Below the pieces are notes generated by a model that ran no database searches, was not told where the DNA came from, and saw only the letters and a program-made list of their open reading frames with translations. From the NCBI GenBank assembly GCA_041395505.1, contig JAWLAG010000002.1:555556-619555 (forward strand): a DNA stretch of 64,000 nt, given 5' to 3'. Positions within the stretch are counted from its first letter, which is position 1. Each line of letters starts with the position of its first letter. The stretch is from Steroidobacteraceae bacterium. Lineage in GTDB: Bacteria; Pseudomonadota; Gammaproteobacteria; Steroidobacterales; Steroidobacteraceae. Positions 7,295 to 64,000 of the stretch are shown here, one piece after another. The position numbers and the translations under genes were made by a program.

Positions 7295-8063
7295 TTCGTT
7301 GCGGACAGGGATGCACTCGATACAGCACCTCGTAGTGCGCAATGAACTGGACACGCCGGGCACTTAGCGGATAGGTGATCAGCCAGAGCGGCAGGTTATC
7401 CGGCGTGACGTCGCTGTCTGCGCGCGGGGAGCGAGCCAACACAAGGGATCCGTTCAACGGACCCACGTCACTGAGGAATACGGGGTCAGTGGCGCTGACC
7501 TGTACCCACTTCGGCCAAAGTGTCTCGCATTCTGTCACGCTGCCCCTTCGCGGCATGGCCATCGAAGGCATGGAAGTGGCTTGGTGGCTGATCGGCTGCG
7601 TGATCGCAACGGGCTGGCCGTCATTACCCACGGCTGTACGACCACCCCGCGGCAGGGGCAATGCCTCGATTTCGTGTACAACCTGTGCAACGTTGCGCAG
7701 TTCAATGACTTCGTCCCGGCTGGCTGAACCACCCGCAATACGCACCGTCACGGGCGAGCCGCGGCCAAGATCCGGAATTGAAACAACCAGGCGCACCCGA
7801 CCAGAGGCGTCCTGGGAGTCCGCGGACGACTGGCAGCGATAACGCAGGCGATCCGGGTAGATGCAGGTGACCTCGAACGGACCCGCTCGGGCCGCGCTTG
7901 CCGAAAGATCGAAAGCGACTCGATTGACCGGTCCTGCCGGCCCGATGGCCTGGGCGCTCGGGACTGCCGACAACGCAGTCCTGCCTGTTACGATGGAGGC
8001 GCCTTCGGACGCCAACCCGGCGGTCGCAATCATGCAGCCTGCCACCGCGATCATCGATCGCAT
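7278..8063 (-). CDS. Hypothetical secreted protein
   Basis: Signal peptide MRSMIAVAGCMIATAGLA. No recognisable domain. Lies 50-70 bp downstream of the ECF sigma gene on the same strand. Confidence 0.5.
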   Translation of the reverse strand: MRSMIAVAGCMIATAGLASEGASIVTGRTALSAVPSAQAIGPAGPVNRVAFDLSASAARAGPFEVTCIYPDRLRYRCQSSADSQDASGRVRLVVSIPDLGRGSPVTVRIAGGSASRDEVIELRNVAQVVHEIEALPLPRGGRTAVGNDGQPVAITQPISHQATSMPSMAMPRRGSVTECETLWPKWVQVSATDPVFLSDVGPLNGSLVLARSPRADSDVTPDNLPLWLITYPLSARRVQFIAHYEVLYRVHPCPQRIIGGS

Positions 8064-8128
8064 GACGCGCGCGGATATCATGCGATGCTAAACGATCAGG
8101 CGAACGCAGTTGGCTCAACCGGGCAGCC

Positions 8129-8683
8129 CTAGCAGCCGGCCAGTGCCTGCCTGTCGAGAAGTCCGCGCAACCTTGCGATTGCATATTTCTTGCGGCTCAA
8201 TACCGTGTCGGTCGGTGCTTGGCATTTCGCAGCCATGTCACGGATGCTGCTGCCGCCGCACCACAATGCCAGAACCTTGCGCTGCTCCGCCGGCAGACGC
8301 TCGACGGCACTGCTGAGGACCTTGCGAACCTGGTCCTGCTGGGCGGCGGATTCCGGACCGCTCTCGTGCACCGCGTGATCAATCATCGTGTCGAGTATCG
8401 CTGGGTCGGTTGCACTGGTACGGGTGCTGGCATGCTTGCGCGTGTACTCGTCGAGGAACGCATTTCGAGCCACCGTGAAGAGAAAGGCACGCATTTGCGC
8501 CTCATCGGCACAGTCGCAGGCTGCGCGCGACTGCGCGTCCAGTACCTTCAGCCACGCAACTTGGGCCAGGTCCTCGGCGCGCTGTGGACAGCGGGTCATC
8601 CTGAACAGAAAGCGAACCAGGCTGCGGTGGTGGTGATTGAACAGTTGCGTTATGCACGGGCGGCTGGATTGGGCATTCGACAT
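8129..8683 (-). CDS. ECF-family RNA polymerase sigma-70 factor
   Basis: Region 2 (LAQVAWLKVLDA, FLFTVARNAFLDEYTRK) and region 4 (LPAEQRKVLALWCGGSSIRDMAAKCQAPTDTVLSRKKYAIARL) motifs. ORF extends to 8764. Start at MSNAQ.. (about 8683) gives a typical 184 aa. Confidence 0.8.
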   Translation of the reverse strand: MSNAQSSRPCITQLFNHHHRSLVRFLFRMTRCPQRAEDLAQVAWLKVLDAQSRAACDCADEAQMRAFLFTVARNAFLDEYTRKHASTRTSATDPAILDTMIDHAVHESGPESAAQQDQVRKVLSSAVERLPAEQRKVLALWCGGSSIRDMAAKCQAPTDTVLSRKKYAIARLRGLLDRQALAGC

Positions 8684-8862
8684 GGTAGTGGCTCCCGGGT
8701 TTGACACAGTGGTCATTGAGCCGGGCGCCGCGCGCAGGGTCCTCAAGCTAGGCTGAAGGATCACTCAAGAATTGCTTATGAGGGGCACCGGCCACTGCTG
8801 CCAAGCCATTTCCGGGCGGGTAATCGTTGTTACGTCGCATCCCAACGCCCAGGAGTCGACTC

Positions 8863-10109
8863 CCATGCCCGCCAAACCCAGCGTACTGGTCGCTGCCCTG
8901 ACAGGTTGCGCCACTGTCCTGCCGCAAGCATTTGCCGCCAATGCCGAATTCCAGAACTTTTTCTTCGATGTCTGCCAGTCTCCAACCGGGCAGCTCGCCG
9001 CCCGATGCGGGGAAACCCCCGCTGGCCTGGGCAATCTCTCCGGTGACAGCGAGTCATCGCTGAACCCCAGCCAGAACATCGGCCATAGCCGACCCGCATT
9101 GAGCTCGGCGCAATCGCGCAGCAAGGCGGTGCGCGAGAAGGGCGAAAAGCTGCGTGACGGCGGCCCGCTGTCAAACGGCGATGACACGACCGCGGTCGCC
9201 GGACCGCTGTCGGTACTCGTCAACATCCACGCGAGCTGGTTCGAGCGCGACAGCAAGGACAATGCTTCGGAACGAAATTTCGATGGCGACAGCCGGGCGC
9301 TCGAAATCGGGCTCGATTATCGTCGTTCGGACCGCCTGGTCATGGGCGCGCTGGTCGGCTATGAAAAGAGCGACTACGCCTTTGCGGCCGAAGCACCCGG
9401 CGTCAATTTCGTGCCCGCTGCGAGTGCGGGCTCGGCCGACGGCAAGCAGCGCTACCTTACCGTTTTCGGAACCTGGCGCATCAGCGACCGCTTCTACATG
9501 GAACTGAGCGCCGGTTCCGAGCGTGGCGATTCGGACTTCGCCCGCAACCCGGTCTTTCAGGAATCGACCAGGTCCCTTCCCCAGTTCGATGTGCGGGTGG
9601 CGGGCAGCGCCAGTATCCGCACCAACTGGGCGAGCATCAACGCGGGATTCGATCAACAGCGCGGTGCTGTCAGTTTCGGTCCCTATGCTGGTGTGACGCT
9701 CTCACGTACACGTATTGGATCTTACGAGGAAACCGATTTGAACGGATCGGGCCTCAACATGGCGTTCGATGCCTCGTCACGAAACTCGCTGTTGGCACAC
9801 GCGGGCATGCGTATCGGCTATTCTGCCAGCTCCCGGTTGGGCGTCGTATTGCCGCAGCTGCGCCTCGAGTATCAACAGGAACTCAAGGCTGATGCGGGGC
9901 GGGCAACAGCCCGCTTCGTCCAGGATGGCGCAGCAACGAACTATTCCTTCAACGGACAACAGGGCGATCGCAATGCCCTGAACGCCGGGCTTAGCGTGGC
10001 CTGCATACTGCCTGGTGGTTGGATGCCGTTCATTGACTATTCGATACTGGTCGGCAGTGAAGACTTCGACAGGCAGCGGGCCACGCTCGGCCTGCGGGTT
10101 GAGTTCTAA
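8863..10109 (+). CDS. Outer-membrane beta-barrel protein (autotransporter-beta-domain-like)
   Basis: AGGAG Shine-Dalgarno 8 nt upstream of ATG. Signal peptide MPAKPSVLVAALTGCATVLPQAFA. Alternating amphipathic beta-strand pattern. C-terminal ..LGLRVEF with terminal Phe, typical of OMP barrels. Confidence 0.6.
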
Positions 10110-50298: not shown

Positions 50299-53133
50299 TC
50301 AGCCGGTCGCCGTGTACGGCAGCGACTCCTGGACGCTCGGTCGCTGCGCCAGCAATGTACTGATCTTTCGCGCCGGCAGGGGCCGCGACAGGAGATGTCC
50401 CTGGATGAAATCACAGCCATGTTGACGCAGGAACTCCAGCTGCTCGGCCGTCTCGACTCCCTCGGCAACGACCTCCTTGCCGAGCGCATGGGCCATGGTG
50501 ATGATCGTGTCGGTAAGCGTGGCCGACGCGCCATCGGCTGGCAGGTCCTCGACGAAACTGCGGTCGATCTTGACCACCGCGATCGGGTGCTGCCGCAGAT
50601 AGTTCATGGCCGAATACCCAGTGCCGAAATCATCGAGCGCGATACGTATCCCCAACTTTGCCAGACGCTCGAGCGCATCGCCAGCCGCGCTGGCTGCGAG
50701 CACGGACTCGGTCAACTCGAATTCCACGCAACTGGGTTCGATGGAAAATCGCTGCAGAATACTTTCCGTCAAACCGAAGAACTGCGGGCTATCGAGCTGC
50801 TTGGCGGAGATATTGACGGCCAGCCGGGCCGGCGCAATCTCCTGCGCTCGCCATTCGGCATACTGTTCGCAGGCTGTTTCCAGGACCCAGGCGCCGATGT
50901 CGATGATCAGGCCCGACTGCTCGGCGGCTGGTACGAATTCCTTTGGATCGCGCGGTCGGCCCCGGCTCGCCTGCCAGCGCAGCAGGGCCTCCACCGCGAC
51001 GATTGCGCCGTTGCTGCTCGCGAACTGCGGCTGATAATAGAGCGCGAATTCGCGTCGCTCGAGGGCGCGATGCAGGCCGCTGGTCGTCGCGGTTATTTTC
51101 AGGTCCCGCATGCGCGGCTCGAAGAACACGGCGCGCCCGCGACCACTGTCCTTGGCGCGATACATCGCAAGGTCTGCGTTGCGCATGGCGTCCTCGGCAC
51201 TGGTCGCATCATCGGGCAGCATGGTCACGCCGATACTGGCACCGATCCGGTAGTCCCTGCCGCCGATGCTCACGGGCTTGTGCAGGCTGTGAACGATACG
51301 CTCCGCAACGACCTGCGCGGCCTGTGGATCGGCAATTTGCCGCAGGATGATCGTGAATTCATCGCCACCGATACGCGCGACCGTGTCGCCGTCCTTGACG
51401 CAGCCACGCAGACGTTGGGCCGCAATGGCCAGCACCTGATCGCCCGCAGCATGTCCCAGGCTGTCGTTGATCTTCTTGAAGTGATCGAGATCGACGAACA
51501 GGAGAGCGCTGCGTGCCGAGCCGCCGGCAACCGCGGCGACTTCCTGTTCCAGCCGGTCGGCGAGCAGCAGGCGGTTCGGCAGCCCAGTCATGCCATCGTA
51601 GTGGGCCTGGCGGTAGAGAACCGCATCGCGCGCCTGCTTCGACAGCGCGGCCGCGAGACGTCCGGCGAACTCCTCGACCTGTCTGGCGGTATCGGGTACG
51701 ACGCTGGGTGCATCCTGGAACCCGACTGCCAGCAAAGCACGTAGATCGCCTTCGACATTGACGGGCCACATCCAGAAATACTCGCTGCCGGCCTCGCGCA
51801 ACGGCGCAATGACGCTGTGGCGTGGTTCTTCGCAGCGCGCAATGGTCAGTCCCTGCGGTGAATTCTCGACCATTGGCAGCAGTTCGGCATCGATGGGCAC
51901 ACGCGACATTTCGGCAGCCGCACGCTGGGCTGTCAGGAAATAGTTGCGCCCATAGGAGCGCGTATTCGGATCGAGCAGCACGATGCATGATGACGCAGCA
52001 CCGGTCGTTCGCAGCAATCGCTCCAGCAGGCCATCGACGATGGCCTCGACATCATCGGCTGCGAGCAGCATCCGGTCGACTTCAGCCAGGGTTTCGAGCG
52101 AGCGGAACTCGCCCTCGATGCGCGTCGCGGCGCGGTTGTAGGCATCGACTGCATCGCTGATCTCATCGGCCCGACGCGGCTCCAACCGCGCCTGCTGGTG
52201 CCGGCCCAGCCGGTCGAGCGCCGTCTGCAGCGCGGCCAGCGGTGCAACGTACAGACCGGTGAGGTAGATGACCGCGGCACCCACCGCCAGCAGCAGCGAC
52301 AGCACGGCGGCGAGCGTGATCAGTACGCCACGGGCGGTGAGCAAAGCGCCAGGCGTATTGGCCTGCATGGTGAGCACGGTCAGCGATTGCGGCGCAACGA
52401 GCCCCGAGGGCAGTTGCAGCAGAGCGCTGTGACCCAGCCACTCCCTGCCGCCCGCCTGCCAGCCGAAGCGTTCGGCCGAGGTCTCGAATGCCGCTGGATC
52501 GAACTGCGCACTGACGCCGGTTGGCAGAACCGCGTCGCGCGGAAAACCCGGCGGCGTGAGCAGCGCGCCAGCACCTGCGACAAGTACCAGACCGAATGTG
52601 GGCGCCTGGTCCGGGTCGCTGCCCAGGAGCCAATGCCTGTCGAGTTCGAAGATCGCGAGCCGCGCCTCGGCGGCCGGGCCAATCCTGCGCACGACGAAGA
52701 TGCTGGTATCGCTGTCGAACTGCGCCGTCACCAGCGCAGCCGTATCGACGTTGCGCAGCACGTCCTCGCCAGCGCCGCTACGCATCAAGGTTCGCGCCAC
52801 GGTACCGTTGTGATCTGCCGGCACGACGGTGACCGAGCTGAATGCCGGCGAGACGATCACGTTGGCGCGCAGCACCCGATCGTCACGCCCCGATGCACCG
52901 GCCACCAGCACGGCACTCACGTCACGCGCCGCCGCCAGGCGACTCTGCAGGCCCGAAACGGCTGCTTCGCTGCGCGCCCCGAGCTCACTTTGCATTCGCC
53001 CGGACTCATCGACCGATCGCTGCCATGAGATCAGTCCGAAGAGCACCAGCAGCGGGGCGCATGCGGCCAGGGAGATGACTTCCGCCATCCGCTGGCCGAT
53101 CGATGTTCTCAGATGGCGAAGCAGCTTCTGCAT
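50299..53133 (-). CDS. Membrane sensor diguanylate cyclase/phosphodiesterase (periplasmic sensor-TM-HAMP-GAF/PAS-like-GGDEF-EAL)
   Basis: N-terminal TM, periplasmic region and second TM. GGDEF motif RIGGDEFTI. EAL motif EALLRW with downstream DDFGTGYS and catalytic E/Q residues. Confidence 0.85.
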   Translation of the reverse strand: MQKLLRHLRTSIGQRMAEVISLAACAPLLVLFGLISWQRSVDESGRMQSELGARSEAAVSGLQSRLAAARDVSAVLVAGASGRDDRVLRANVIVSPAFSSVTVVPADHNGTVARTLMRSGAGEDVLRNVDTAALVTAQFDSDTSIFVVRRIGPAAEARLAIFELDRHWLLGSDPDQAPTFGLVLVAGAGALLTPPGFPRDAVLPTGVSAQFDPAAFETSAERFGWQAGGREWLGHSALLQLPSGLVAPQSLTVLTMQANTPGALLTARGVLITLAAVLSLLLAVGAAVIYLTGLYVAPLAALQTALDRLGRHQQARLEPRRADEISDAVDAYNRAATRIEGEFRSLETLAEVDRMLLAADDVEAIVDGLLERLLRTTGAASSCIVLLDPNTRSYGRNYFLTAQRAAAEMSRVPIDAELLPMVENSPQGLTIARCEEPRHSVIAPLREAGSEYFWMWPVNVEGDLRALLAVGFQDAPSVVPDTARQVEEFAGRLAAALSKQARDAVLYRQAHYDGMTGLPNRLLLADRLEQEVAAVAGGSARSALLFVDLDHFKKINDSLGHAAGDQVLAIAAQRLRGCVKDGDTVARIGGDEFTIILRQIADPQAAQVVAERIVHSLHKPVSIGGRDYRIGASIGVTMLPDDATSAEDAMRNADLAMYRAKDSGRGRAVFFEPRMRDLKITATTSGLHRALERREFALYYQPQFASSNGAIVAVEALLRWQASRGRPRDPKEFVPAAEQSGLIIDIGAWVLETACEQYAEWRAQEIAPARLAVNISAKQLDSPQFFGLTESILQRFSIEPSCVEFELTESVLAASAAGDALERLAKLGIRIALDDFGTGYSAMNYLRQHPIAVVKIDRSFVEDLPADGASATLTDTIITMAHALGKEVVAEGVETAEQLEFLRQHGCDFIQGHLLSRPLPARKISTLLAQRPSVQESLPYTATG

Positions 53134-54470: not shown

Positions 54471-55811
54471 ATGAGGCGATTTGCGGCGTTGATCTGCGGC
54501 ATGCTGACCCTGTCAGCCGCCGCCTGGGCCCAGGACGACAGCGAGCGGCTGGCCCTCTATCAGCAATTTCGCGCCGAATTCGATGCGCGCCGCTTCGAGG
54601 ACGCACTGGCGCGGGCCAACGAGCTGGTCAGTGCGACCGAAAGCACTTTCGGCAACGATGCGCTCGAGCTGGCCATCCCGCTTACCAACGTCGGCACGAC
54701 CGCGCTGCGCCTCGGCAACCTGGGTCTTGCCGAGACATCCTATCTGCGCAGCGTCACGGTGCTCGATGCGAATACCCGCGGCGCCAATGCCGATCTCATC
54801 CCGCCGTTGCATGGACTCGGCCTGACCTACCTGGCGAAGAATGATCCGACGAGCGCCGCGATCGCACTACGCCGCGCGGTCGATCTGTCGCGTAACCTCA
54901 ACGGCCTATACAACATCGGGCAGCTGCCGATCGTGGAGTCGCTGATCAGCGCCGAGGTCGCGCTGAATCAGCTTGCGGACGCCGAGAAGGAGCACCAATA
55001 CGCCTATCGCATCGCGGAAACCAACTACGGCGCGACCGACCCGCGCATGTTGCCCGCCATGGCGAACTACGCGGCCTGGTTCGAGTCCATGGGCCGCTTC
55101 TCGACGGCACGGCGCATGTACGCGCAGGCACTCGGCGTTGCCGAGAACAGTCTGGGCAAAGCCGCCCTCGAGTCGGTGCCGCCATTGCGCGGGATCGCCC
55201 GCACCTACATGCTCGAATTCCTGCTCGGCTACGAGGATCCCGAGGCCAGCGCCGCTGCGCAGGATCCGTTTGCATCCCAGAACCAGACGGGCGCGCAACT
55301 GCAGCGGGTCAATACCGACGGCGAGAAAGCGCTGCTGATTGCGCTCGATCGCATCAACAAGGCGACACCACCCGATCTCGGATTGCGCGGCCAGACCCTG
55401 CTCGACCTCGGCGACTGGTACCTTGTGGGCGCCAATTCCGCCAAGGCGCTCGGTGTCTACCAGCAAGCCTGGCCCGACCTGGTGGCCAGCAACCAGTTGG
55501 ACCTGGTCGCGAAGCCGCGCCAGCTCGCCTACAAGGCGCCGTCGAGTTCCATCACGCGCTCGAGCTACGACCCCGACAAGGAGGATCTTCGGGTGGTCGA
55601 AGTGAAATGCAGCGTGAGCGAAACGGGCAAGATCGGCGATTGTGAGTCGATGCGCAGCGAGGCGTCGGACGCCCAGGAGCGCTCGGTGATTTTCGCGGCG
55701 AAGAAATCCCGCTATGCGCCACGCATGGAAAACGGGGTAACGGTACCGACCGAAGGCATCATCGTGCGCGACTCGCTCGTGGTCGCCAAGCCCGCGCCAC
55801 CGAAATCTTGA
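54471..55811 (+). CDS. Secreted TPR-like protein with TonB-C-like C-terminal domain
   Basis: Signal peptide MRRFAALICGMLTLSAAAWA. Helical-repeat body. C-terminal 80 aa (VVEVKCSVSETGKIGDCESMRS..YAPRMENGVTVPTEGIIVRDSLV) resembles a TonB/TolA C-terminal fold. Confidence 0.55.
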   Translation: MRRFAALICGMLTLSAAAWAQDDSERLALYQQFRAEFDARRFEDALARANELVSATESTFGNDALELAIPLTNVGTTALRLGNLGLAETSYLRSVTVLDANTRGANADLIPPLHGLGLTYLAKNDPTSAAIALRRAVDLSRNLNGLYNIGQLPIVESLISAEVALNQLADAEKEHQYAYRIAETNYGATDPRMLPAMANYAAWFESMGRFSTARRMYAQALGVAENSLGKAALESVPPLRGIARTYMLEFLLGYEDPEASAAAQDPFASQNQTGAQLQRVNTDGEKALLIALDRINKATPPDLGLRGQTLLDLGDWYLVGANSAKALGVYQQAWPDLVASNQLDLVAKPRQLAYKAPSSSITRSSYDPDKEDLRVVEVKCSVSETGKIGDCESMRSEASDAQERSVIFAAKKSRYAPRMENGVTVPTEGIIVRDSLVVAKPAPPKS

Positions 55812-55816
55812 CGCTG

Positions 55817-56611
55817 CTATCGCCCTGCGAGTCGTTCCTGTGGTGGTGGCACGGGCGCAGGCTCCGCGGCCGGCGGCACCGGTTCGGGTAGGGATGCCGG
55901 CGGCGACACAACACCAGTCGCCGGTGCCGTGTCGATGATGGGTACGGCCTCGATGCGATTCGCCCTCGCGCCAGTCGCACTCGCCAGCAGGGGCGCGCCA
56001 TCGCGCAACTGCGCCGCCAGCGTCATCTCGGGAAACTGCACCAGGAATTTCGCGACGGCATCGCGCATGGCGCGCTGGCTGGCGAGGATCAGCGGATTGC
56101 CGCTCGAGACACCCTTCGCGGCACTGTTGCCATAGCCGGTGAGCGTCAGGCTATCAACGGCTGCGCCATCGGGCGTCAGGACGTTGAATCGATAGCGAAT
56201 GGTGACGGCATAGTAGCCGCCACCGGTGTCCTTCGCGGTCGCGAAGGAGAACTGTTCGATCCTGGGTTCGAAAATCGCGCGTAATCCGCTCGCGGCATGA
56301 GCCTCCTCGAGCGTCGAGAACTCGGCGACATCCTTGAATTCCGCGCCGAACAAAGCGCGCACCATGGCAAGGTGGCCCGGTCCAAGTTCGATGGACCAGG
56401 GCACGCCCCAGCGCGATTCCTTATGGACGAAATTGCGCATGTCGGGCTGCACGAGCAGGCCGACGCGTGCTTCGATTGGATTGACGAGCGCACGCGGCAA
56501 CGCCACGGCAGGTGCGATTTCGACGCCGCCGCAGCCGACGATCAGCGCCGCGGCGAGGCAGGCGCCGACCGTTGCGCCAACGCGGCTCAGCGCTCGCCGC
56601 TGAGACACTTG
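55817..56611 (-). CDS. Lipoprotein with Pro-rich C-terminus (last gene of the MotA/VWA/FHA operon)
   Basis: Lipobox ..AAALIVGCGG. C-terminal PPASLPEPVPPAAEPAPVPPP. Start uncertain: ATG at 56692 would overlap the upstream gene by 105 nt, GTG at about 56611 is preferred. Confidence 0.5.
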   Translation of the reverse strand, partial: QVSQRRALSRVGATVGACLAAALIVGCGGVEIAPAVALPRALVNPIEARVGLLVQPDMRNFVHKESRWGVPWSIELGPGHLAMVRALFGAEFKDVAEFSTLEEAHAASGLRAIFEPRIEQFSFATAKDTGGGYYAVTIRYRFNVLTPDGAAVDSLTLTGYGNSAAKGVSSGNPLILASQRAMRDAVAKFLVQFPEMTLAAQLRDGAPLLASATGARANRIEAVPIIDTAPATGVVSPPASLPEPVPPAAEPAPVPPPQERLAGR

Positions 56612-57639
56612 CGCACCCCGCCAAATTCGACCGCAAAGCCGCAGGCGTCGTCCTGGGTGATGCCGACGAAGGTACCGTCGTTCTGCGCGCACATACTGCG
56701 CATTAAGGCGGAAAACTTGATGTTTGTAAATGCCGTGGGACCGGCCACGGCGGGGAATCCAATGGCATGGATGCGCACCATCTTGCGGCCGCCCTTGCCG
56801 GGCAGATTGACCGCCGCCACGGCATCGAGCGCCGTCTGGATGTAATCGCCGGTGTATTCATCGCCGAGCACATAGAGGCTGATGCGCTTGTCCGGCGCCC
56901 AATATCGCCTGATGGCCTCCACGATGCCTTCGACCGGGCTGGAATTGCTGTACGGCGCCCAGTCGGGCATGCGCTCGAGGATGCGCCGCCGCTGCCGGTC
57001 GTTGTCCTCGAGCCACTTGCCGCGGGTGCCCTCGAACATGGGCCGGCCCTCGTCGTCCATGACCTGCAGTCCCTTGACCTTGGGATAGATATCGAGGATT
57101 TCAGTCATCACACCGGCCGCCGTATCCCAGTGCTGGCCGTGCATGCTGTTCGAGGTATCGATGATGAAAATGATGTATTCGCTGTCGACTGGAATGCCGC
57201 CGATCGCGTCCGAACGCAACGGCCGGTCGGGTACCTTGGCTTCGAGCAGCTTGACGTCGGCCGTCAACTGCCGGTAGGCGTCTGCCAGCTCGTTCTCGAC
57301 GATATCGCTCACGCTCGCTTCGTTGCGCGATGTCTTGAACTCACCGCGCACGCTGCTGATATCGCCGGCAAGACGGCTCAGGCGCCTTTTCTCGATCGTG
57401 AGCTTGTCGATGCGACCCTGCAATTCGCGGTTGAGTTGATCGGTCTCGCCGCGCAACGCGAACAGCTCTTCCTGCAGTTTCTTCAATTGCTGGGACAGGT
57501 CCTGTCGCGATTTTTCGATGATCACGGGCTGGCCGAATTCCGACAGCACGAGAAGCAGGATAACCGCGCCGAAACCGCAGCAAATGCAGTCGATGAACGA
57601 CAGGCTGATGATTTCGGTCTCGCGTTGTCGCCGCTTCAT
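56587..57639 (-). CDS. ExbD/TolR-like TM helix + coiled coil + VWA-domain protein (paralog 1)
   Basis: N-terminus MKRRQRETEIISLSFIDCICCGFGAVILLLVL has a single TM helix with buried Asp (compare ExbD/TolR NxTPxIDVxxVLL). Coiled coil follows. VWA domain with MIDAS DTSNS (FIIDTSNSM) and downstream Thr/Asp. Confidence 0.8.
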   Translation of the reverse strand: MKRRQRETEIISLSFIDCICCGFGAVILLLVLSEFGQPVIIEKSRQDLSQQLKKLQEELFALRGETDQLNRELQGRIDKLTIEKRRLSRLAGDISSVRGEFKTSRNEASVSDIVENELADAYRQLTADVKLLEAKVPDRPLRSDAIGGIPVDSEYIIFIIDTSNSMHGQHWDTAAGVMTEILDIYPKVKGLQVMDDEGRPMFEGTRGKWLEDNDRQRRRILERMPDWAPYSNSSPVEGIVEAIRRYWAPDKRISLYVLGDEYTGDYIQTALDAVAAVNLPGKGGRKMVRIHAIGFPAVAGPTAFTNIKFSALMRSMCAQNDGTFVGITQDDACGFAVEFGGVRKCLSGER

Positions 57640-58724
57640 GGCCAGTCCCGCGATGGCATCACGAAACTGCCGCCGCTCTTGCGCGCGACCATCCAGTAAC
57701 GATGTGTCGCAGGCAGATCGCCTTTCATGGGCAGCAAAACGACGTCGATGGGCGTCTTTGCGGGCAGGTCACGCGTTGCGGCATCGAACAGTTTGGCGCG
57801 ATCGCGCACGGAGATGTATTTGGCGAATCCCGGCGGGGTGCTGCCCTGCGTTGGCAGGCCATCGGTGATCAACACGATCTGATCCGGCGCAGGCTTCAGG
57901 TCCTTCAAAGCCGCCAGCGCATTGACCAGGCTCGTGCCCTCCTCCGGTACGAGTTCACGGACGGCGTCGCGCAAGCGTCCGCGTGTGGCGCGGTCATCGG
58001 CACGCAACCACTTGCCTGCAGTCTCGCCGAGCACGGCCTTCGAATTGACGTTGAATGCATACAGCTGGTAGCTCGATTCGCCGGGCAACTGCGTGCTGAG
58101 CCAGTCGACGATGCGCACTGCGCGGCGCCACTTCTCGGTGCGCCGGCGCGTCTCAGGCGCGGTATTGCGCAAACGAAGGATCTCCACGACGTCGTCGTGC
58201 ATCATGCTGGCCGAGCGGTCCAGCAGGATCAGGATTCGCTTGCCACGCAAATTAAGGCCATTGATATAGCGTCTCGGACCGCCACGCAGCTTGCCCGTCG
58301 CCGAGGGTAGATCATCTTCGCCCGCACGCGCCGACAACCGCCGCGATTCCTCCTCCAGCGAACGCACGTCGGCCTTCAGTTTCTCGATGTGCTCGCGTCG
58401 CGCCAGCGTCTCCTTGTCGAAGACGGACGACTGCTCGCGCCGTTCCTGGATCTCCTGCACGAAGCGTCGCGCGCGCTCGGCGGCGGATGCGGTTTCACTG
58501 GTGGTCTTCTCGAGCGTATTGCGCAACACGACCAGATTCTTGGTGCCTTCCAGCACTTCGATTTCGAGACGGCTGACTTCGGCCGCGAGATCGTCGGTAC
58601 GCCGGATACGCTCCTGGCCGCTTTGTGCGCTGATGATGGTATAGAAAAGGATCACGGCACCGAAGCCGCAGCTGATGCAGTCGAGGAAGGACAGGCTGAA
58701 GACTTCGACCTTGCGGCGGGGCAT
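57636..58724 (-). CDS. ExbD/TolR-like TM helix + coiled coil + VWA-domain protein (paralog 2)
   Basis: N-terminus MPRRKVEVFSLSFLDCISCGFGAVILFYTII. Coiled coil. VWA MIDAS LLDRSASM, downstream T and D (VLITDGLPT). Its stop overlaps the paralog-1 start (ATGA). Confidence 0.8.
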   Translation of the reverse strand: MPRRKVEVFSLSFLDCISCGFGAVILFYTIISAQSGQERIRRTDDLAAEVSRLEIEVLEGTKNLVVLRNTLEKTTSETASAAERARRFVQEIQERREQSSVFDKETLARREHIEKLKADVRSLEEESRRLSARAGEDDLPSATGKLRGGPRRYINGLNLRGKRILILLDRSASMMHDDVVEILRLRNTAPETRRRTEKWRRAVRIVDWLSTQLPGESSYQLYAFNVNSKAVLGETAGKWLRADDRATRGRLRDAVRELVPEEGTSLVNALAALKDLKPAPDQIVLITDGLPTQGSTPPGFAKYISVRDRAKLFDAATRDLPAKTPIDVVLLPMKGDLPATHRYWMVARKSGGSFVMPSRDWP

Positions 58725-58726
58725 GC

Positions 58727-60046
58727 TCAGTCGCCAGCCAGAAACTGCGCATAGATCGGCGGACTGCCGATGCGCAGCAGGTCACCGGCATGCAGCGGCG
58801 TGCGCTTCGCGACGCGTTGGCCGTTGTGGAAGCTGCCGTGGCGACTGTGATCCACGAGGTAGTGCCGGTCGCCATCGGCCTCGATGGTGCAGTGATGGCG
58901 CGACACGCCCTGCGCGTTTGCCGGCAACGGAATATCGCAGCCCTCGCGCCCAAGGGTCCTGTGTTCGGCAGCCAATTCGAAACGCTGGCCGTTGATGGCG
59001 ATTGCGGTGGGCGTTGCCGGGGTCGCACTTCGAATCGGCGTCCAGGCCGGCGCGAACACGGGCTCTGCCAGTGTCGGCACGGCAAGTGCCAGTGCGAGCC
59101 CCGAACCTGCGACCGCTTGCCGCGATGCCGCCATCGCCGCGACGCCTTGTGGCAGCAGTGCCATTCGACCCGCGCAGACCGCCGCGATCGCCACCGGGAA
59201 ACCTGGCCAGTGCTCGCAGTGCCGCGGCAGGAGAAGCGAAACGTCGCTCACGGCGCCGAGCTCCGCCAGCACTTGCTGCACGCGCTCATAGAGTGGCGCT
59301 GCGGCGTACTGCAGGTCGGCCGCCGCAATCCTGGCGGTGAACGCTCGTCCCTGCGAACTCAGTTGTACCTGTGCCAATTGCCCGTGCGCCAGACGCTCCA
59401 GCACACGCGGCAGCGCATCGTATAGCTGTTGTTCGAGCTGTCCGTGATGGAGAGGATCGAAGCGGGTCTGGCGCACCATGCTGGCCGCGATGCACTCGAG
59501 CCACAGCTCCTGCATGCGGATCAGCCCGATGCCCTCCACGGTTACGGATCGCAGCCTGCGCGCAGCCGCGCCGGTTTCTACCAGGCTTGCAGCAACGTGA
59601 TGAAGACCCACTTCGAGCACGATCGCGGCACCTTGCACGCCGCTTGCAGCCGCGCTGAGTGCAGCAGCGTCGCACAGTTGCGGCTCGGGCAACTCGAGCG
59701 CCGCGAACAGTCCGGGAATCACGCCGAGCGGAGCGATGTCGAAGCGCGCCGGGACGGCGACGACGTACTGGTCGTCGCTGCCGCCGTAGCTGGCAAGACG
59801 CCTGCGTAACTCGCTCGCAAGCAGCATGTTGTTGGCATCATCGTCGCCGTTGCCAAGCTGCAGGCTTTGCCAGTGATCGCTGCTGACCCGTTCCGGCGCC
59901 TCGCGCAGCAGGGATTGCGCGTCATCGCCGAGGCTGCCGTTGCCGGCCGAGCCATTGTCGACGAGGCTCGGTCGGCAATCGAGCAACACGCCGTCGCTCG
60001 CGATGGCATACGACGCGTCGTCGACATGCAGACCGAGGCAGGCCAT
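58727..60046 (-). CDS. Actin/Hsp70-like N-terminal domain + C-terminal FHA-domain protein
   Basis: C-terminal FHA (LGREGCDIPLPANAQGVSRHHCTIEADGDRHYLVDHSRHGSFHNGQRV..GDLLRIG). N-terminus LGLHVDDASYAIASDG..YVVAVPARFD..LCDAAALSAAA resembles phosphate-1/adenosine motifs of sugar-kinase/Hsp70/actin ATPases (tentative). Start set at MACLGL so the gene abuts motA-like without overlap. Confidence 0.75.
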   Translation of the reverse strand: MACLGLHVDDASYAIASDGVLLDCRPSLVDNGSAGNGSLGDDAQSLLREAPERVSSDHWQSLQLGNGDDDANNMLLASELRRRLASYGGSDDQYVVAVPARFDIAPLGVIPGLFAALELPEPQLCDAAALSAAASGVQGAAIVLEVGLHHVAASLVETGAAARRLRSVTVEGIGLIRMQELWLECIAASMVRQTRFDPLHHGQLEQQLYDALPRVLERLAHGQLAQVQLSSQGRAFTARIAAADLQYAAAPLYERVQQVLAELGAVSDVSLLLPRHCEHWPGFPVAIAAVCAGRMALLPQGVAAMAASRQAVAGSGLALALAVPTLAEPVFAPAWTPIRSATPATPTAIAINGQRFELAAEHRTLGREGCDIPLPANAQGVSRHHCTIEADGDRHYLVDHSRHGSFHNGQRVAKRTPLHAGDLLRIGSPPIYAQFLAGD

Positions 60047-60051
60047 GGCCG

Positions 60052-60891
60052 TCAGTGCGCCTGCATGTTGCGGATGACTTTCTGATCGAGATAGGTTTCG
60101 GCATCGTGCACGAGCCGCTCCTGCACGAGCTGCAACTGGTGCAGCAGGAACATCAGCAGTATCGACAGCAACAGCGCGATCAGCGTTGAATTGAATGCCA
60201 CACCGAGTCCGGCGGTGACGCCGCTGATATCGCCCGATACAGCCTTGTGTGCCTGCGAGAGTGCATCGCCGATGCCGCGCACCGTACCGATGAAGCCGAT
60301 GGCCGGTATGGCCCAGGCGATGTAGCGCAGCATCGACAGCTCCGAATCGAGACGCTCGGACTCGGTCTCGCATACCGCGTGGGCCACATCGGACACGTCC
60401 TGGACGTTTCGCGTCGCGCCAAACCGTCCGAGTGCGGCAAGGAGTGCGCGCGGCACGAGCGCGTTGCGTTGCTCAGCCGGCAGCGCCTCGAGTTGCCGCG
60501 AGTACTCGCGCGTGTCCTCGGGCAGTATGCGCATGCCCTCCGGAATGCGCAGTACTTCCCCGTCCAGGATCTGCCGCTCGCGACGCTGCGACAGGGCCTT
60601 GTAGCCCATGATCGCAAGGGCCCAGAGCATGAGGATGATCTCGGATTCCTGCTCGTAGTCCTTGATGAGGATGTAGGGACTGCGCTCGGCGACGAAATTC
60701 GGGTCCTGGTCCATGGCGAGTTTCTGCGCGGCCATGATGGCATTCGCCGTCGGTCGCACATGCAGGACATAGATCGTGTGTACCAGCAGGATCGCCAGCA
60801 TCAGCGCCGCTACGTTGAATGAAAACTCATTCGGATAGCGCCGCAGCTGCAGCAGATTGGCCGGACTGGAAATTGCATTCGTGTCATTCAT
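60052..60891 (-). CDS. MotA/TolQ/ExbB-family proton-channel protein
   Basis: 3-4 TM helices with conserved C-terminal block AIPAIGFIGTVRGIGDALSQA..GVAFNSTLIALLLSILLMFLL. Confidence 0.85.
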   Translation of the reverse strand: MNDTNAISSPANLLQLRRYPNEFSFNVAALMLAILLVHTIYVLHVRPTANAIMAAQKLAMDQDPNFVAERSPYILIKDYEQESEIILMLWALAIMGYKALSQRRERQILDGEVLRIPEGMRILPEDTREYSRQLEALPAEQRNALVPRALLAALGRFGATRNVQDVSDVAHAVCETESERLDSELSMLRYIAWAIPAIGFIGTVRGIGDALSQAHKAVSGDISGVTAGLGVAFNSTLIALLLSILLMFLLHQLQLVQERLVHDAETYLDQKVIRNMQAH

Positions 60892-60906: not shown

Positions 60907-61182
60907 TTAGATGTCGATTGGAAACGAGACGTTATTGTCAGCCGAATCGCGCATGCTCGGGTCGCTCTCCGCATCCGCGCCCTGGCTCAAGGGTTCGGCC
61001 GGCTTTTCCTGGGCCTGCGGCTCCGCGGTATCCGTTTTCTCCACGGGCTCCTGCTGTTGCGCCTGTGCTTCCTGGGCCAGGAGGCGCGTACCGTAGAGAA
61101 CGGCGGTGCCACAGAGCAGCGCCGCAAGGGCGGTCAGGGCGATCAACGCCAGGGTCTGGCGCTCAGCGCGACGCAAGGGCAT
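60907..61182 (-). CDS. Small single-TM protein with acidic/Gln-rich tail
   Basis: 91 aa, TM LALIALTALAALLCGTAVLYG. Packed between motA-like and the upstream FHA-PEGA-FGE gene (20-nt overlap). Confidence 0.45.
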   Translation of the reverse strand: MPLRRAERQTLALIALTALAALLCGTAVLYGTRLLAQEAQAQQQEPVEKTDTAEPQAQEKPAEPLSQGADAESDPSMRDSADNNVSFPIDI

Positions 61183-63652
61183 TGCTGTCCTCCTCGGTGT
61201 ACTGCACGCCAGCGGGATCAGCGTAGCGCGCTATCCGAAACCCAAGATTGTTGGCTGCGACATCGCCGGCCTCGCGCCAGGCCAGGCGCAGCTCGGCGGT
61301 GAGCGTCGTGCGCCAGCTTGCGCCGCGAAACACATGGCTGCGCCCACTCTCCGGGCCCAGCGGGTCGATACTCGCCTCTCGATCCGGAAACGCGGCGTAA
61401 CGATCATTGACCCACTCGGACACGTTGCCGCCCATGTCGAAGAGTCCGGAGGGATTGGCTGGAAACCGGCCGGTTGGTGCGACTGCCTTGTACTCGTCAC
61501 TGTGGCCCGCAAGCGCCGAGCCGAGAATGCCGCCCGCCTCGCTGCCACCGAGATTGTCCCGCCCGCTCGGCACGGGCAGGCTGTTCCCCCAGGCATAACG
61601 CAGGAGACCGCCCGGGGACACGCGCGCCGCGTACTCCCATTCGGCCTCGGTCGGCAGACGATAGCCATCGCCGACGGGCGTACGCAGCACCCAGTGGTCC
61701 GAACGCCGCTCGTAGGCTTCGGCGAGTCCGGCTTCACGTGACAACCAATTGCAATACTCGACGGCCTCTGCCCAGTCGACACCGGTGACGGCCTGGGAGT
61801 CGAGATCGATGCTGAGATCGCCGACGATGCCCGACTTGTGATCGGGGCGAAATCGCCGAAATTCGCCGTTGCTGACTTCGGTCACGCCGATGTAGAACGG
61901 GCGCTTCAGCGTGACCGCGCGCAGCGACTCATTGGGACGTCGCCCCTGTTCGCGCCGCGCGCTGCCCATGTTGAACTGACCGCCCGTGATGAGCTGCAAG
62001 GCAGCACCCGTGGGCGCGCGGATGGTTCGCGCCAGGGCTTCGCGGCGCGCACCGGGACGGAACAGCTGGTAATCAACCTGGCGCGCCACGCCCGGTAACA
62101 GCGCCACCTTCTGCGTGAGGGGTTCGAAACCCTCGGCGCGCAACTCCAGCTGGTAATCGCCTGCCGGCAGATCAACGCGAAGCGGCGCGCGTCCACGGAC
62201 GACACCGTTGATGAATACATCGGCCGCGGCGGGTTCGCCGGCTATATTCAGACTCACGTTGAGCGCTTCGAGTGCAACCTTGAGCTGCTCGGTCTTGCCT
62301 GCCACTGCCGTGAACTGCACGGCGCGGCTGCGATAGCCACGCCGCGACACCAGCACCGGATAATCGACTCCCGGTGCGAGACTGACAGTCAGTGGCGTGC
62401 GGCCACGATACTTGCCGCCGACAGAAACCTCCGCCGCGGAAGGCTGACTGCGAACCTCGAGCAGTGCATCCGGTGCGCCAAGATCGATGGGACCAAGATC
62501 CATCGTCCGGCCCGCCTGCACCACGACGCTGCTGTCCCAGGCACGGGCGTCGCTCGCCGTGATGCGCAGCCTGTGTACGCCGGCAGGCAGCTCGAGACGC
62601 GCCGGAAGCGCTTGCGCCGGTTGGTCGTCGACGCGAAGCAGGGCGGCCGCGCTGCTGCTCGAGACATTGACGACGCCCCAGTCGGGTTGCATTTCGATTG
62701 CGATCGTCTGTCGCAGGCCACCACCCTCGACGTCGATCTTGCCGATCGCATCGAGATAGCGCTTGGCCCGCAGGGTGATGGTATGCGCGCCCGGCTTGAT
62801 CTCGAGCTCGCCCGGCACTTTCCCCGCCTCGGCACCATCGACGTAGGCGAGCGCAGCGATGTCGGCCGTGTCGACCGTCACGAGACCCGGCTTCCTGACG
62901 AGCCGGATCCGGACCGGTGCGGTCATGCCGTCGCTCGCCACGATCGCGACTTCGCCATCGTAATAGCCCTCGCGGCGCGCGCGCAGCTGGTGTCGACCTG
63001 CAAATACGAACAGGGTGTCGCCGGCATGCCAGCTGAACAGGCTGCCTGTCGCGCGAACGTTGAGGTCATTGGGCGCCAGATCGAGCGGCACGCGAATCAG
63101 CGCGGCAATGAACAGCGTCGTTGCGAGCGCCGCGGCGGAGACCGCCGCCAGCACCCAGCGCAGGCGTTGGGTCGGCGGTGCGGCTGAGCGGCGACGAGGG
63201 AGCGTTGTGCCGACCGGAAGCTGCACCGCAATGGGCTTGATGGCGATCGACTCTTCGCTGTGGGTCACCACGCGAGTCGTAGCGGGAAGTTGCCCGGGCG
63301 CCTGGGTGCGATTGGCAACATCGTGCTCGACGTCGAGGGCGAGTGTGCCGTCCGCCTCCTGCAAACGAAGTTGCACGCGGCCGCAGTGAACGACATCGCC
63401 CGGCGCGAGATCGTGGTGATCATCGAGACGGTCGCCATTGACGTCGACTGCGGGGGCGCCGGCGAGCTTCACGAGCCGCAGCCGACCGTCGATGACTTCG
63501 ATGTTGAGCATCGGCCCGGTCGGGCCGGGCACGACGATCGTCGCACCGGCCCCGCCGATGGTCAGCGGCAGCCGCATCCGCCGCTGCCCCTGCGGCTCGA
63601 TGATCGTCAGGTCGGTGAGTTCGCGCATTGCGGGACGCGCGCCGGTGGTCAT
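61163..63652 (-). CDS. FHA + TM + PEGA repeats + FGE-sulfatase (SUMF1-like) domain membrane protein
   Basis: N-terminal FHA-like (LPLTIGGAGATIVVPG..LAPGDVVHCGRVQLRL). TM (WVLAAVSAAALATTLFIAALI). Several PEGA-like repeats (VSVGGKYRGRTPLTVSLAPGVDYPVLVSRRGY, VFINGVVRGRAPLRVDLPAGDYQLELRAEGF). C-terminal FGE-sulfatase fold (GVDWAEAVEYCNWLS..YRLPTEAEWEYAAR..MGGNVSEWVND..GFRIARY). Confidence 0.8.
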   Translation of the reverse strand: MTTGARPAMRELTDLTIIEPQGQRRMRLPLTIGGAGATIVVPGPTGPMLNIEVIDGRLRLVKLAGAPAVDVNGDRLDDHHDLAPGDVVHCGRVQLRLQEADGTLALDVEHDVANRTQAPGQLPATTRVVTHSEESIAIKPIAVQLPVGTTLPRRRSAAPPTQRLRWVLAAVSAAALATTLFIAALIRVPLDLAPNDLNVRATGSLFSWHAGDTLFVFAGRHQLRARREGYYDGEVAIVASDGMTAPVRIRLVRKPGLVTVDTADIAALAYVDGAEAGKVPGELEIKPGAHTITLRAKRYLDAIGKIDVEGGGLRQTIAIEMQPDWGVVNVSSSSAAALLRVDDQPAQALPARLELPAGVHRLRITASDARAWDSSVVVQAGRTMDLGPIDLGAPDALLEVRSQPSAAEVSVGGKYRGRTPLTVSLAPGVDYPVLVSRRGYRSRAVQFTAVAGKTEQLKVALEALNVSLNIAGEPAAADVFINGVVRGRAPLRVDLPAGDYQLELRAEGFEPLTQKVALLPGVARQVDYQLFRPGARREALARTIRAPTGAALQLITGGQFNMGSARREQGRRPNESLRAVTLKRPFYIGVTEVSNGEFRRFRPDHKSGIVGDLSIDLDSQAVTGVDWAEAVEYCNWLSREAGLAEAYERRSDHWVLRTPVGDGYRLPTEAEWEYAARVSPGGLLRYAWGNSLPVPSGRDNLGGSEAGGILGSALAGHSDEYKAVAPTGRFPANPSGLFDMGGNVSEWVNDRYAAFPDREASIDPLGPESGRSHVFRGASWRTTLTAELRLAWREAGDVAANNLGFRIARYADPAGVQYTEEDSNALASR

Positions 63653-63659
63653 GTCGGCC

Positions 63660-64000
63660 TCAGATGGCTTCGTCGCAGCGCACGATGACCGTCTGAACGC
63701 TCTCTCCCGGCGTTACGACTATCTCGCGGCGCACGTCGCGGTAGCCGGTACGCGTACCGACCACGACATAACGTCCGGGTTTCAGTTCGACTTGTCGTCG
63801 CATGAAGCTTCCGTACTGCCCGACACGCGTGATGCTCACCGTGGTCGCGTCGTCAGACTCGAGCACGACCGATACTGGTTTGTCGTATTCGGGCAGCAAA
63901 AGTTCGATTCGGGCGATCTGCGAGCGCAGCACGGGTCCCTGGGGACTGATGCCGCGGGCCTGCTCGAGGAGCGAGTCGGCCTCGTTGCGGACTTCGGCAG
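63660..64000 (-). CDS. PEGA-domain protein, N-terminal part outside the window (partial)
   Basis: C-terminal sequence ..VSITRVGQYGSFMRRQVELKPGRYVVVGTRTGYRDVRREIVVTPGE is a PEGA repeat. The frame stays open to the window end. Confidence 0.5.
   Translation of the reverse strand, partial: AEVRNEADSLLEQARGISPQGPVLRSQIARIELLLPEYDKPVSVVLESDDATTVSITRVGQYGSFMRRQVELKPGRYVVVGTRTGYRDVRREIVVTPGESVQTVIVRCDEAI

Follow-up and report, generated by a model that had tools for sequence, protein, structure and literature searches.

Two paralogous VWA-domain proteins with a conserved Asp-bearing helix as probable pore-helix subunits of a MotA/TolQ-like protein in Steroidobacteraceae

Background

Can VWA-domain proteins take the place of ExbD, TolR or MotB as the B-type (pore-helix) subunits of a MotA/TolQ-like protein? 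The question is raised by a gene cluster on the minus strand of a 64,000-nucleotide stretch of DNA from a Steroidobacteraceae bacterium (GenBank assembly GCA_041395505.1, contig JAWLAG010000002.1, positions 555,556 to 619,555), the whole of which is called the window here and to which our coordinates refer unless a related locus is named. Two paralogous genes of the cluster, here B1 and B2, encode proteins made of a single transmembrane (TM) helix, a stalk and a VWA domain, and a third, here A, encodes a member of the MotA/TolQ/ExbB family. Judging from sequence, conservation and gene order, we think it probable that B1 and B2 are B-type subunits that work with the A protein and replace ExbD, TolR and MotB. 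The hypothesis of VWA-containing B subunits is not new, as a computational prediction of this kind was published in June 2025 for a family designated TPH-vWA (Mol Biol Evol, PMC12204202; section 8 and Fig. 4c-d, the parts of the paper drawn on here). The four genes on which the argument turns are the following.

57636-58724, minus strand: B1, a TM-stalk-VWA protein of 362 amino acids (open reading frame (ORF), Pfam, AlphaFold 2 (AF2) model and alignments)
56587-57639, minus strand: B2, a paralogous TM-stalk-VWA protein of 350 amino acids (ORF, Pfam and BLASTP)
60052-60891, minus strand: A, a MotA/TolQ/ExbB-family protein of 279 amino acids (Pfam MotA_ExbB and ortholog profile)
58727-60046, minus strand: a protein of 439 amino acids between A and B1, with an Hsp70 nucleotide-binding domain (NBD)/actin-like domain and an FHA domain (AF2 and Foldseek)

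The paired VWA proteins and their Asp-bearing helix

Both B1 and B2 begin with a basic stretch followed by SLSF(L/I)DCI(S/C)CGFGAVIL (N-terminus MPRRKVEVFSLSFLDCISCGFGAVILFYTII in B1 and MKRRQRETEIISLSFIDCICCGFGAVILLLVL in B2), and the coordinates and sequences that a sequence-only reading of this DNA had given for them were confirmed. In B1 the basic tail occupies residues 1-8 and the TM (transpore) helix residues 13-31 (58632-58688), with Asp15 encoded by the GAC codon at 58680-58682; in B2 the helix spans residues 15-33 (57541-57597) and Asp17 is encoded by GAC at 57589-57591. The start of B2 overlaps the stop of B1 through an ATGA. The two proteins are paralogs by BLASTP (E = 2e-12) and, while they are 24% identical overall, their helix regions are about 75% identical. 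A match at 100% identity in the database belongs to a metagenome-assembled genome of Steroidobacteraceae.

The helix motif with its Asp was found in 44 of 44 B1 orthologs and 43 of 43 B2 orthologs from Gammaproteobacteria, Desulfobacteraceae and Opitutales, at an overall identity to B1 of 27-46%. Conservation of the Asp in orthologs had been named as a point on which the sequence-only reading could fail, and it held in all 87 of these proteins across three phyla; the stretch SFLDxxxCGFGA is near-invariant in them and in relatives further away. Beyond these orthologs, the pattern [S/A]F[L/I/M]D followed by CG[F/L]G was present in every N-terminally intact member of a set of 269 relatives, which includes representatives of clusters at 50% identity, and F13, D15, G20 and G22 were invariant in 85 non-redundant N-termini. 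The helix block (conservation 0.69-0.73) ranks with the best-conserved regions of the proteins, and the stalk (0.41-0.45) is the least conserved. The family is large (1409 clusters at 50% identity, E<=0.001), and the motif is strongly non-random and far beyond chance.

That both proteins carry VWA domains, as had been read from their translations, was borne out by Pfam VWA_2 (6.8e-8 for B1 and a weak match for B2), by a DxSxS metal ion-dependent adhesion site (MIDAS) in both (DRSAS at residue 169 of B1, DTSNS at residue 161 of B2) and by the VWA fold of the AF2 model of B1. In the model an unbroken helix covers residues 13-133, residues 134-162 form a disordered linker and residues 163-355 make up the VWA domain, which has a predicted local distance difference test score (pLDDT) above 90; Foldseek matched the model to 4fx5, ITIH1 and BatB. 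Past the membrane the modelled helix runs on for some 100 residues, or about 15 nm. B2 has a C-terminal extension (residues ~330-350, 56587-56700) with two extra cysteines, C333 and C345, which is missing in almost all orthologs; because these cysteines are not conserved, a disulfide argument for the location of the VWA domain in the periplasm was dropped.

A single TM helix with the Asp near its cytoplasmic end had been proposed for both proteins, and hydropathy, AF2 and flanking charges agree with this. The hydropathy scan gave a single TM segment in B1 and in B2, and because the AF2 helix begins at residue 13, the Asp would fall within the helix's first turn, close to the cytoplasmic side. 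Averaged over 234 relatives, the ten positions that precede the helix hold 3.4 Lys plus Arg and 0.8 Asp plus Glu (net +2.6), and the fifteen that follow it 2.1 and 2.5 respectively (net -0.4), charges which favour a cytoplasmic N-terminus.

The A protein and the genes around it

The A protein belongs to Pfam MotA_ExbB (PF01618; 56 bits against a cut-off of 22.9). A profile built from 23 orthologs matched E. coli TolQ (8odt_A, E = 6.7e-4), and the A protein on its own found no match in the PDB with phmmer. Its pore motifs, P196-x-x-GF-x-GTVRGI and AFNST, are invariant, and they include the two pore threonines of the last two TM helices, which align with those of TolQ: Thr203 (60283-60285, in GFIGTVRGI) with T145, and Thr236 (60184-60186, in AFNST) with T178, both invariant in the 23 orthologs. 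A fourth, moderately hydrophobic segment (residues ~82-100) was also seen between TM1 and the long cytoplasmic region of the A protein, and because of it the topology may be MotA-like with four TM segments, though the protein is closest in sequence to the three-TM TolQ.

A conventional partner for the A protein was sought both in the window and in 45 related loci, drawn from Gammaproteobacteria (Woeseiaceae, Panacagrimonas and Chromatiales), Desulfobacteraceae and Verrucomicrobia (Opitutales). Panacagrimonas perspica DSM 26377 (locus L021) and Desulfogranum marinum are examples of carriers in culture. Searches by phmmer with TolR and ExbD gave no ORF at E<=10 in the 64-kb window or in the 45 loci, and searches with MotB gave only genes for OmpA-domain proteins, which are separate and lie after B2 in Woeseiaceae, so that the A gene is without a conventional B partner nearby. 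The kept threonines of A, together with the absence of a nearby ExbD/TolR/MotB-type gene, support B1 and B2 as a putative heterodimeric B subunit.

The sequence-only reading had placed the two VWA genes directly downstream of the MotA/ExbB-family gene, which needs correcting: the minus-strand operon order is A, the gene for the 439-residue protein (58727-60046), B1 and B2, so that one gene separates A from B, as it does in the relatives. This order was kept in 42 of the 43 loci with sufficient flanking sequence, the sole exception being an Opitutales locus (L030), where the B1-B2 pair (7989-10048) is adjoined by oxidoreductase-like and aminotransferase-like ORFs.

The A protein also matches ZorA models weakly (PADLOC, E = 8.8e-5, in the generic MotA/ExbB/TolQ region), as would be expected if the cluster were a Zorya-like anti-phage defence system on a MotA/MotB-like module. 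We consider this very improbable, since PADLOC recovers no ZorB, ZorC or ZorD, its other matches are only weak ones to coiled-coil or low-complexity regions, the cluster has no nuclease or helicase gene, A with its 279 residues is without the long ZorA tail, and the cluster is stably syntenic in the chromosomes of three phyla and not patchy. As PADLOC gave only the generic ZorA match, the defence reading was rejected.

Comparison of the helix with ExbD, TolR and MotB

Several results weigh against B1 and B2 as B-type subunits. The first concern the relationship of their helix to those of the known B subunits, for which the sequence-only reading had proposed the same arrangement, naming the lack of a significant profile similarity to the ExbD/TolR segment as grounds for refutation; neither HMMER nor hhalign gave a significant match, and this refuting condition did arise. 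Pfam ExbD (PF02472) gave no match at E<=0.1 to full-length B1 or B2 and none at E<=10 to the 85 N-termini; MotB_plug likewise matched neither the full proteins nor, at E<=10, the N-termini; Pfam found no OmpA-like domain in B1 or B2; and an NCBIfam scan of the full proteins gave no ExbD or MotB match. A profile of the N-terminal family, run against the whole set of PDB sequences with a limit of E<=10, recovered no ExbD, TolR, MotB, PomB or ZorB chain, its only match being NDUFB4, which was set aside as a chance match. Comparison by hhalign with the N-termini of TolR and ExbD (a narrow target of enterobacterial TolR/ExbD only, from the 120 closest homologs, with a TolR query identical to PDB 9ddm_Y) aligned five columns in register on the Asp, with a probability of 3% and P = 0.015, and 2 of 200 column shuffles reached the same score, a result which is suggestive and not significant. 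The helix of B1 and B2 is thus, by these profile comparisons, a distinct sequence family, and because its profile does not match that of the ExbD/TolR helix significantly, the relationship is best described as a functional analogy and not as demonstrated homology.

The remaining points against this assignment are of other kinds. In the A protein the position equivalent to E173 of TolQ, an acidic residue of TM3 in TolQ and ExbB, is not acidic. The separation of the A and B genes by one gene is a caveat, and in L030 the 8 kb upstream of the B1-B2 pair contain neither a MotA/TolQ-like nor an Hsp70-FHA gene. The positive-inside rule is the sole basis on which the VWA heads would be placed in the periplasm. 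As for the pairing itself, two different B subunits for one A gene had been called unusual, which overstates the case: AglQ and AglS of Myxococcus are a precedent, and a B heterodimer would not be unprecedented.

Part of this evidence would also fit a different role, in which B1 and B2 serve as accessory VWA proteins of the periplasm, held by a membrane anchor and either bound outside the pentamer in the manner of TolA, TonB or GltG or simply co-expressed with it, and the pore is filled by an unlinked subunit of the ExbD/TolR type. The lack of significant similarity of the helix to ExbD, TolR and MotB and the L030 pair with no A gene nearby are in keeping with it, as is the prediction, in the parts of PMC12204202 used here, of a separate vWA family of peripheral, TolA/TonB-like force transducers, which have an SHLS/His helix, a proline-rich linker and tolQ and tolR neighbours. 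Those marks of peripheral binders are absent from the present pair, whose helices have no His or SHLS-type motif, whose stalk is helical and which has no tolR gene beside it. A buried Asp in both paralogs, kept in three phyla within a highly conserved helix, is not what would be expected of a simple anchor, and no ExbD/TolR gene was found within 8 kb in the 45 loci. We therefore judge an accessory role to be unlikely. The assignment of B1 and B2 as B-type subunits is supported in silico by the conserved Asp helix, the pore threonines of A, the absence of ExbD/TolR genes nearby and the published prediction, all of it computational.

Conserved neighbours of the A, B1 and B2 genes

The rest of the cluster consists of the following genes.

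63660-64000, minus strand, cut at the window edge: PEGA-like C-terminus, the 3' end of the first cluster gene (relatives)
61163-63652, minus strand: FHA-like/TM/PEGA/FGE-sulfatase protein of 829 amino acids (Pfam and NCBIfam)
60907-61182, minus strand: small protein of 91 amino acids (ORF and equivalents in related loci)
55817-56608, minus strand: lipoprotein, the last cluster gene (lipobox LIVGC; no known family)

The frame of the first gene is open up to the end of the window (the ORF list gave a 90-residue ORF starting at 63932). Its counterparts in relatives are 580-760 residues long; in locus L003 the counterpart is a Ser/Thr kinase-TPR-PEGA-like protein, and in the Opitutales loci L024 and L032 it has TPR only and no kinase match. 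The 829-residue protein has an FHA-like N-terminus, a TM helix (168-186), three PEGA domains and an FGE-sulfatase domain of the GldK/PorK type; its NCBIfam matches are all below the cut-offs of their models, including that to TIGR03525 GldK (8e-26), and an FHA-TM-PEGA-FGE-sulfatase protein is kept nearby in all three phyla.

The protein encoded between A and B1 was modelled by AF2 with a pLDDT of 92.7. It is cytoplasmic, with an Hsp70-NBD/actin-like domain over residues ~1-320 and an FHA domain at its C-terminal end, and Foldseek matched it to DnaK NBDs (E ~1e-15) at 12-16% identity; the same architecture lies between A and B1 in Opitutales. In its phosphate-loop region LDDA stands in place of the GTT motif of Hsp70, and because of this replacement its ATPase activity is uncertain.

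The small protein starts with a hydrophobic helix or signal, continues through an acidic stretch of low complexity and closes with a conserved C-terminus, ...VSFPIDI. A counterpart was present at the same position in 12 of 12 related loci (for example L003 5475-5789, L009 5473-5733 and L013 5315-5548), with a C-terminal consensus of roughly FxP[ST]EE..D...FPx[DN][IL], and one may speculate that the VWA domains bind it as an acidic ligand at their MIDAS sites. At the other end of the cluster the lipoprotein is common to the Panacagrimonas loci, and in other relatives the gene is missing or different. In Woeseiaceae the position after B2 is held by an OmpA-family gene for a protein of ~240-260 residues with an N-terminal hydrophobic, signal-like segment; Pfam identified OmpA-family (peptidoglycan-binding) and Gly-zipper domains in L006 (10249-11025) and L009 (10216-10932), and such genes are also found at this position in L012, L017, L043 and L045.

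The conserved gene content of the surroundings, namely a Ser/Thr kinase, a pair of FHA proteins, a protein with PEGA and FGE-sulfatase domains and a secreted small acidic protein, suggests an envelope machine that is regulated by phosphorylation. The same content could instead be read as a TM Ser/Thr-kinase/FHA/vWA signalling module, in which A is an ion channel or sensor and the Asp helix serves oligomerisation or ion sensing and produces no torque. The conservation together of the kinase, the two FHA proteins and the VWA domains is in line with that idea, as is the occurrence of FHA domains among the vWA-associated proteins of other bacterial systems (PMC7159879). We nevertheless find a purely signalling role improbable: the pore motifs that serve proton coupling in TolQ, both threonines included, are kept exactly in A, and a rigid, extended stalk that ends in a binding head looks like a force transducer. 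Signalling and motor roles are also not mutually exclusive, and regulation by phosphorylation may be added to B1 and B2 acting as B-type subunits.

Two further genes lie beyond the cluster in the window. Convergent with the lipoprotein gene, at 54471-55811 on the plus strand, is a gene whose TPR product weakly matches the TonB C-terminal domain (24.0 bits against a cut-off of 24.6) and which is not conserved beside the cluster in relatives. Further off, a minus-strand ORF of 944 amino acids (50299-53133) has GGDEF-like (RIGGDEF) and EAL-like motifs in its translation and is probably a cyclic di-GMP turnover protein.

Comparison with the published prediction and with known systems

As described in the sections of PMC12204202 used here, the TPH-vWA proteins are TM-tethered vWA proteins that occur mostly in heterologous pairs, are tightly linked to tolQ homologs without any tolR or exbD, and come chiefly from Proteobacteria and Verrucomicrobia. 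AlphaFold 3 models of 5:2 complexes place the Asp of their transpore helix inside a conserved ring of threonines of the pentamer; the paper remarks that deletion phenotypes have not been described for its vWA transducers, and it presents no experimental test of the paired family. B1 and B2 show each feature of that description (the pair, the tolQ-like gene, no tolR or exbD, the Asp, the threonine ring and the phyla), a match by description, as the seed of the published family is a set of Idiomarina loihiensis proteins and no Idiomarina member was found among the family clusters looked up. The present cluster differs in having one gene between A and B and in its Hsp70/FHA, kinase, PEGA/FGE and small proteins, which those sections leave unmentioned. 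No description of this conserved kinase/FHA/Hsp70-like/PEGA/small-protein context was found in the sections and supplement text of PMC12204202 consulted or in further literature searches.

With ExbB-ExbD as well as TolQ-TolR, which are 5:2 proton motors, the cluster shares an A protein that is a member of MotA_ExbB nearest to TolQ and has both pore threonines. B1 and B2 resemble ExbD and TolR in the basic tail and in an acidic residue at -8 followed by seven semi-hydrophobic residues and the Asp (E15...D23 in TolR, D17...D25 in ExbD), a resemblance that we read as architectural, as the helix SFLDCISCGFGA comes from another family and has no Pfam ExbD match. In the AF2 model of B1 the periplasmic alpha/beta domain of ExbD and TolR is absent and a helical stalk and VWA domain are found there; in the pair as a whole that domain would be replaced by a stalk of ~100 residues and a VWA domain, and B is a predicted heterodimer. 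The cluster also differs from TolQ/ExbB systems in having no TonB/TolA partner with an SHLS motif. MotA-MotB and PomA-PomB are comparable in the A superfamily, in the Asp-bearing helix of B and in a periplasmic end of B that anchors to the envelope, whereas B1 and B2 have neither a MotB_plug nor an OmpA-like domain, no flagellar genes lie nearby and the OmpA-family protein of Woeseiaceae is encoded separately after B2.

Further parallels come from the Agl-Glt gliding machine and the type IX secretion system. In Myxococcus AglR-AglQ-AglS a TolQ-like pentamer (AglR5) is predicted to hold two different B subunits, GltG, an FHA-TM protein, is predicted to make contact with that pentamer and the VWA protein CglB is the terminal binding element; here, however, the B subunits themselves bear the VWA domain, in place of an outer-membrane lipoprotein such as CglB, and AglQ and AglS, unlike B1 and B2, are TolR-like. 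GldLM/PorLM with PorK/GldK also combine a 5:2 motor, a long periplasmic B stalk and a periplasmic partner of the FGE-sulfatase fold, although the motor proteins are unrelated in sequence, the cluster has no other genes of the type IX secretion system, and its FGE-sulfatase protein has an inner-membrane anchor and an FHA-like end in the cytoplasm. BatA and BatB are likewise membrane-anchored VWA proteins, and BatB (3ibs) is among the best structural matches of B1, although the cluster lacks both a MoxR ATPase and the setting of a Bat operon. Neither a conserved Asp-bearing helix nor a MotA/TolQ partner is known for Bat proteins. The literature on vWA-MoxR conflict systems (PMC7159879) gives no link to MotA or ExbB.

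Proposed mechanism and significance

If B1 and B2 are B-type subunits, they would form a heterodimer whose N-terminal helices lie inside a pentamer of the MotA/TolQ-like protein, giving a 5:2 proton-driven motor. Asp15 of B1 and Asp17 of B2 would sit one turn into the membrane from the cytoplasm and face the Thr203 and Thr236 rings of A, and the two aspartates, protonated and deprotonated in alternation, would link the passage of protons to a turning of the pentamer against the dimer. Beyond the membrane the B stalk of ~100 residues (~15 nm), probably a coiled coil of B1 and B2, would lead through a flexible linker of ~30 residues to a periplasmic VWA head with an intact MIDAS. We suppose that this head could grip a periplasmic or outer-membrane partner, so as either to anchor the motor or to pull or twist the partner. 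On the cytoplasmic face, assembly or activity of the motor may be gated by threonine phosphorylation through the neighbouring kinase-TPR, Hsp70/FHA and FHA-TM-PEGA-FGE proteins.

A wider proposal, which we put forward tentatively as a possibility that is open to considerable doubt, is that this motor is the engine of an undescribed envelope machine, in which the kinase-TPR protein phosphorylates a cytoplasmic component, the two FHA proteins read the mark and the VWA heads grip a partner encoded in the cluster. The readers would be the FHA domain fused to the Hsp70/actin-like domain and the GltG-like FHA protein with periplasmic PEGA and PorK-like domains. Candidate partners for the VWA heads are the small acidic protein with its ...FPxD(I/L) C-terminus, the lipoprotein and the OmpA-family protein.

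What is new here is a Steroidobacteraceae member of such a family, together with a conserved neighbourhood for which no published description was found and which offers concrete partners that can be approached experimentally. If the assignment of B1 and B2 is true, the family of 5:2 proton motors would extend beyond partners of the ExbD, TolR and MotB types, and the rotor/stator dimer would itself bear, at the end of a ~15-nm stalk, a VWA head that adheres in a metal-dependent way, taking inner-membrane energy directly to the outer envelope in a family that is common in environmental Gammaproteobacteria, Desulfobacterota and Verrucomicrobia.

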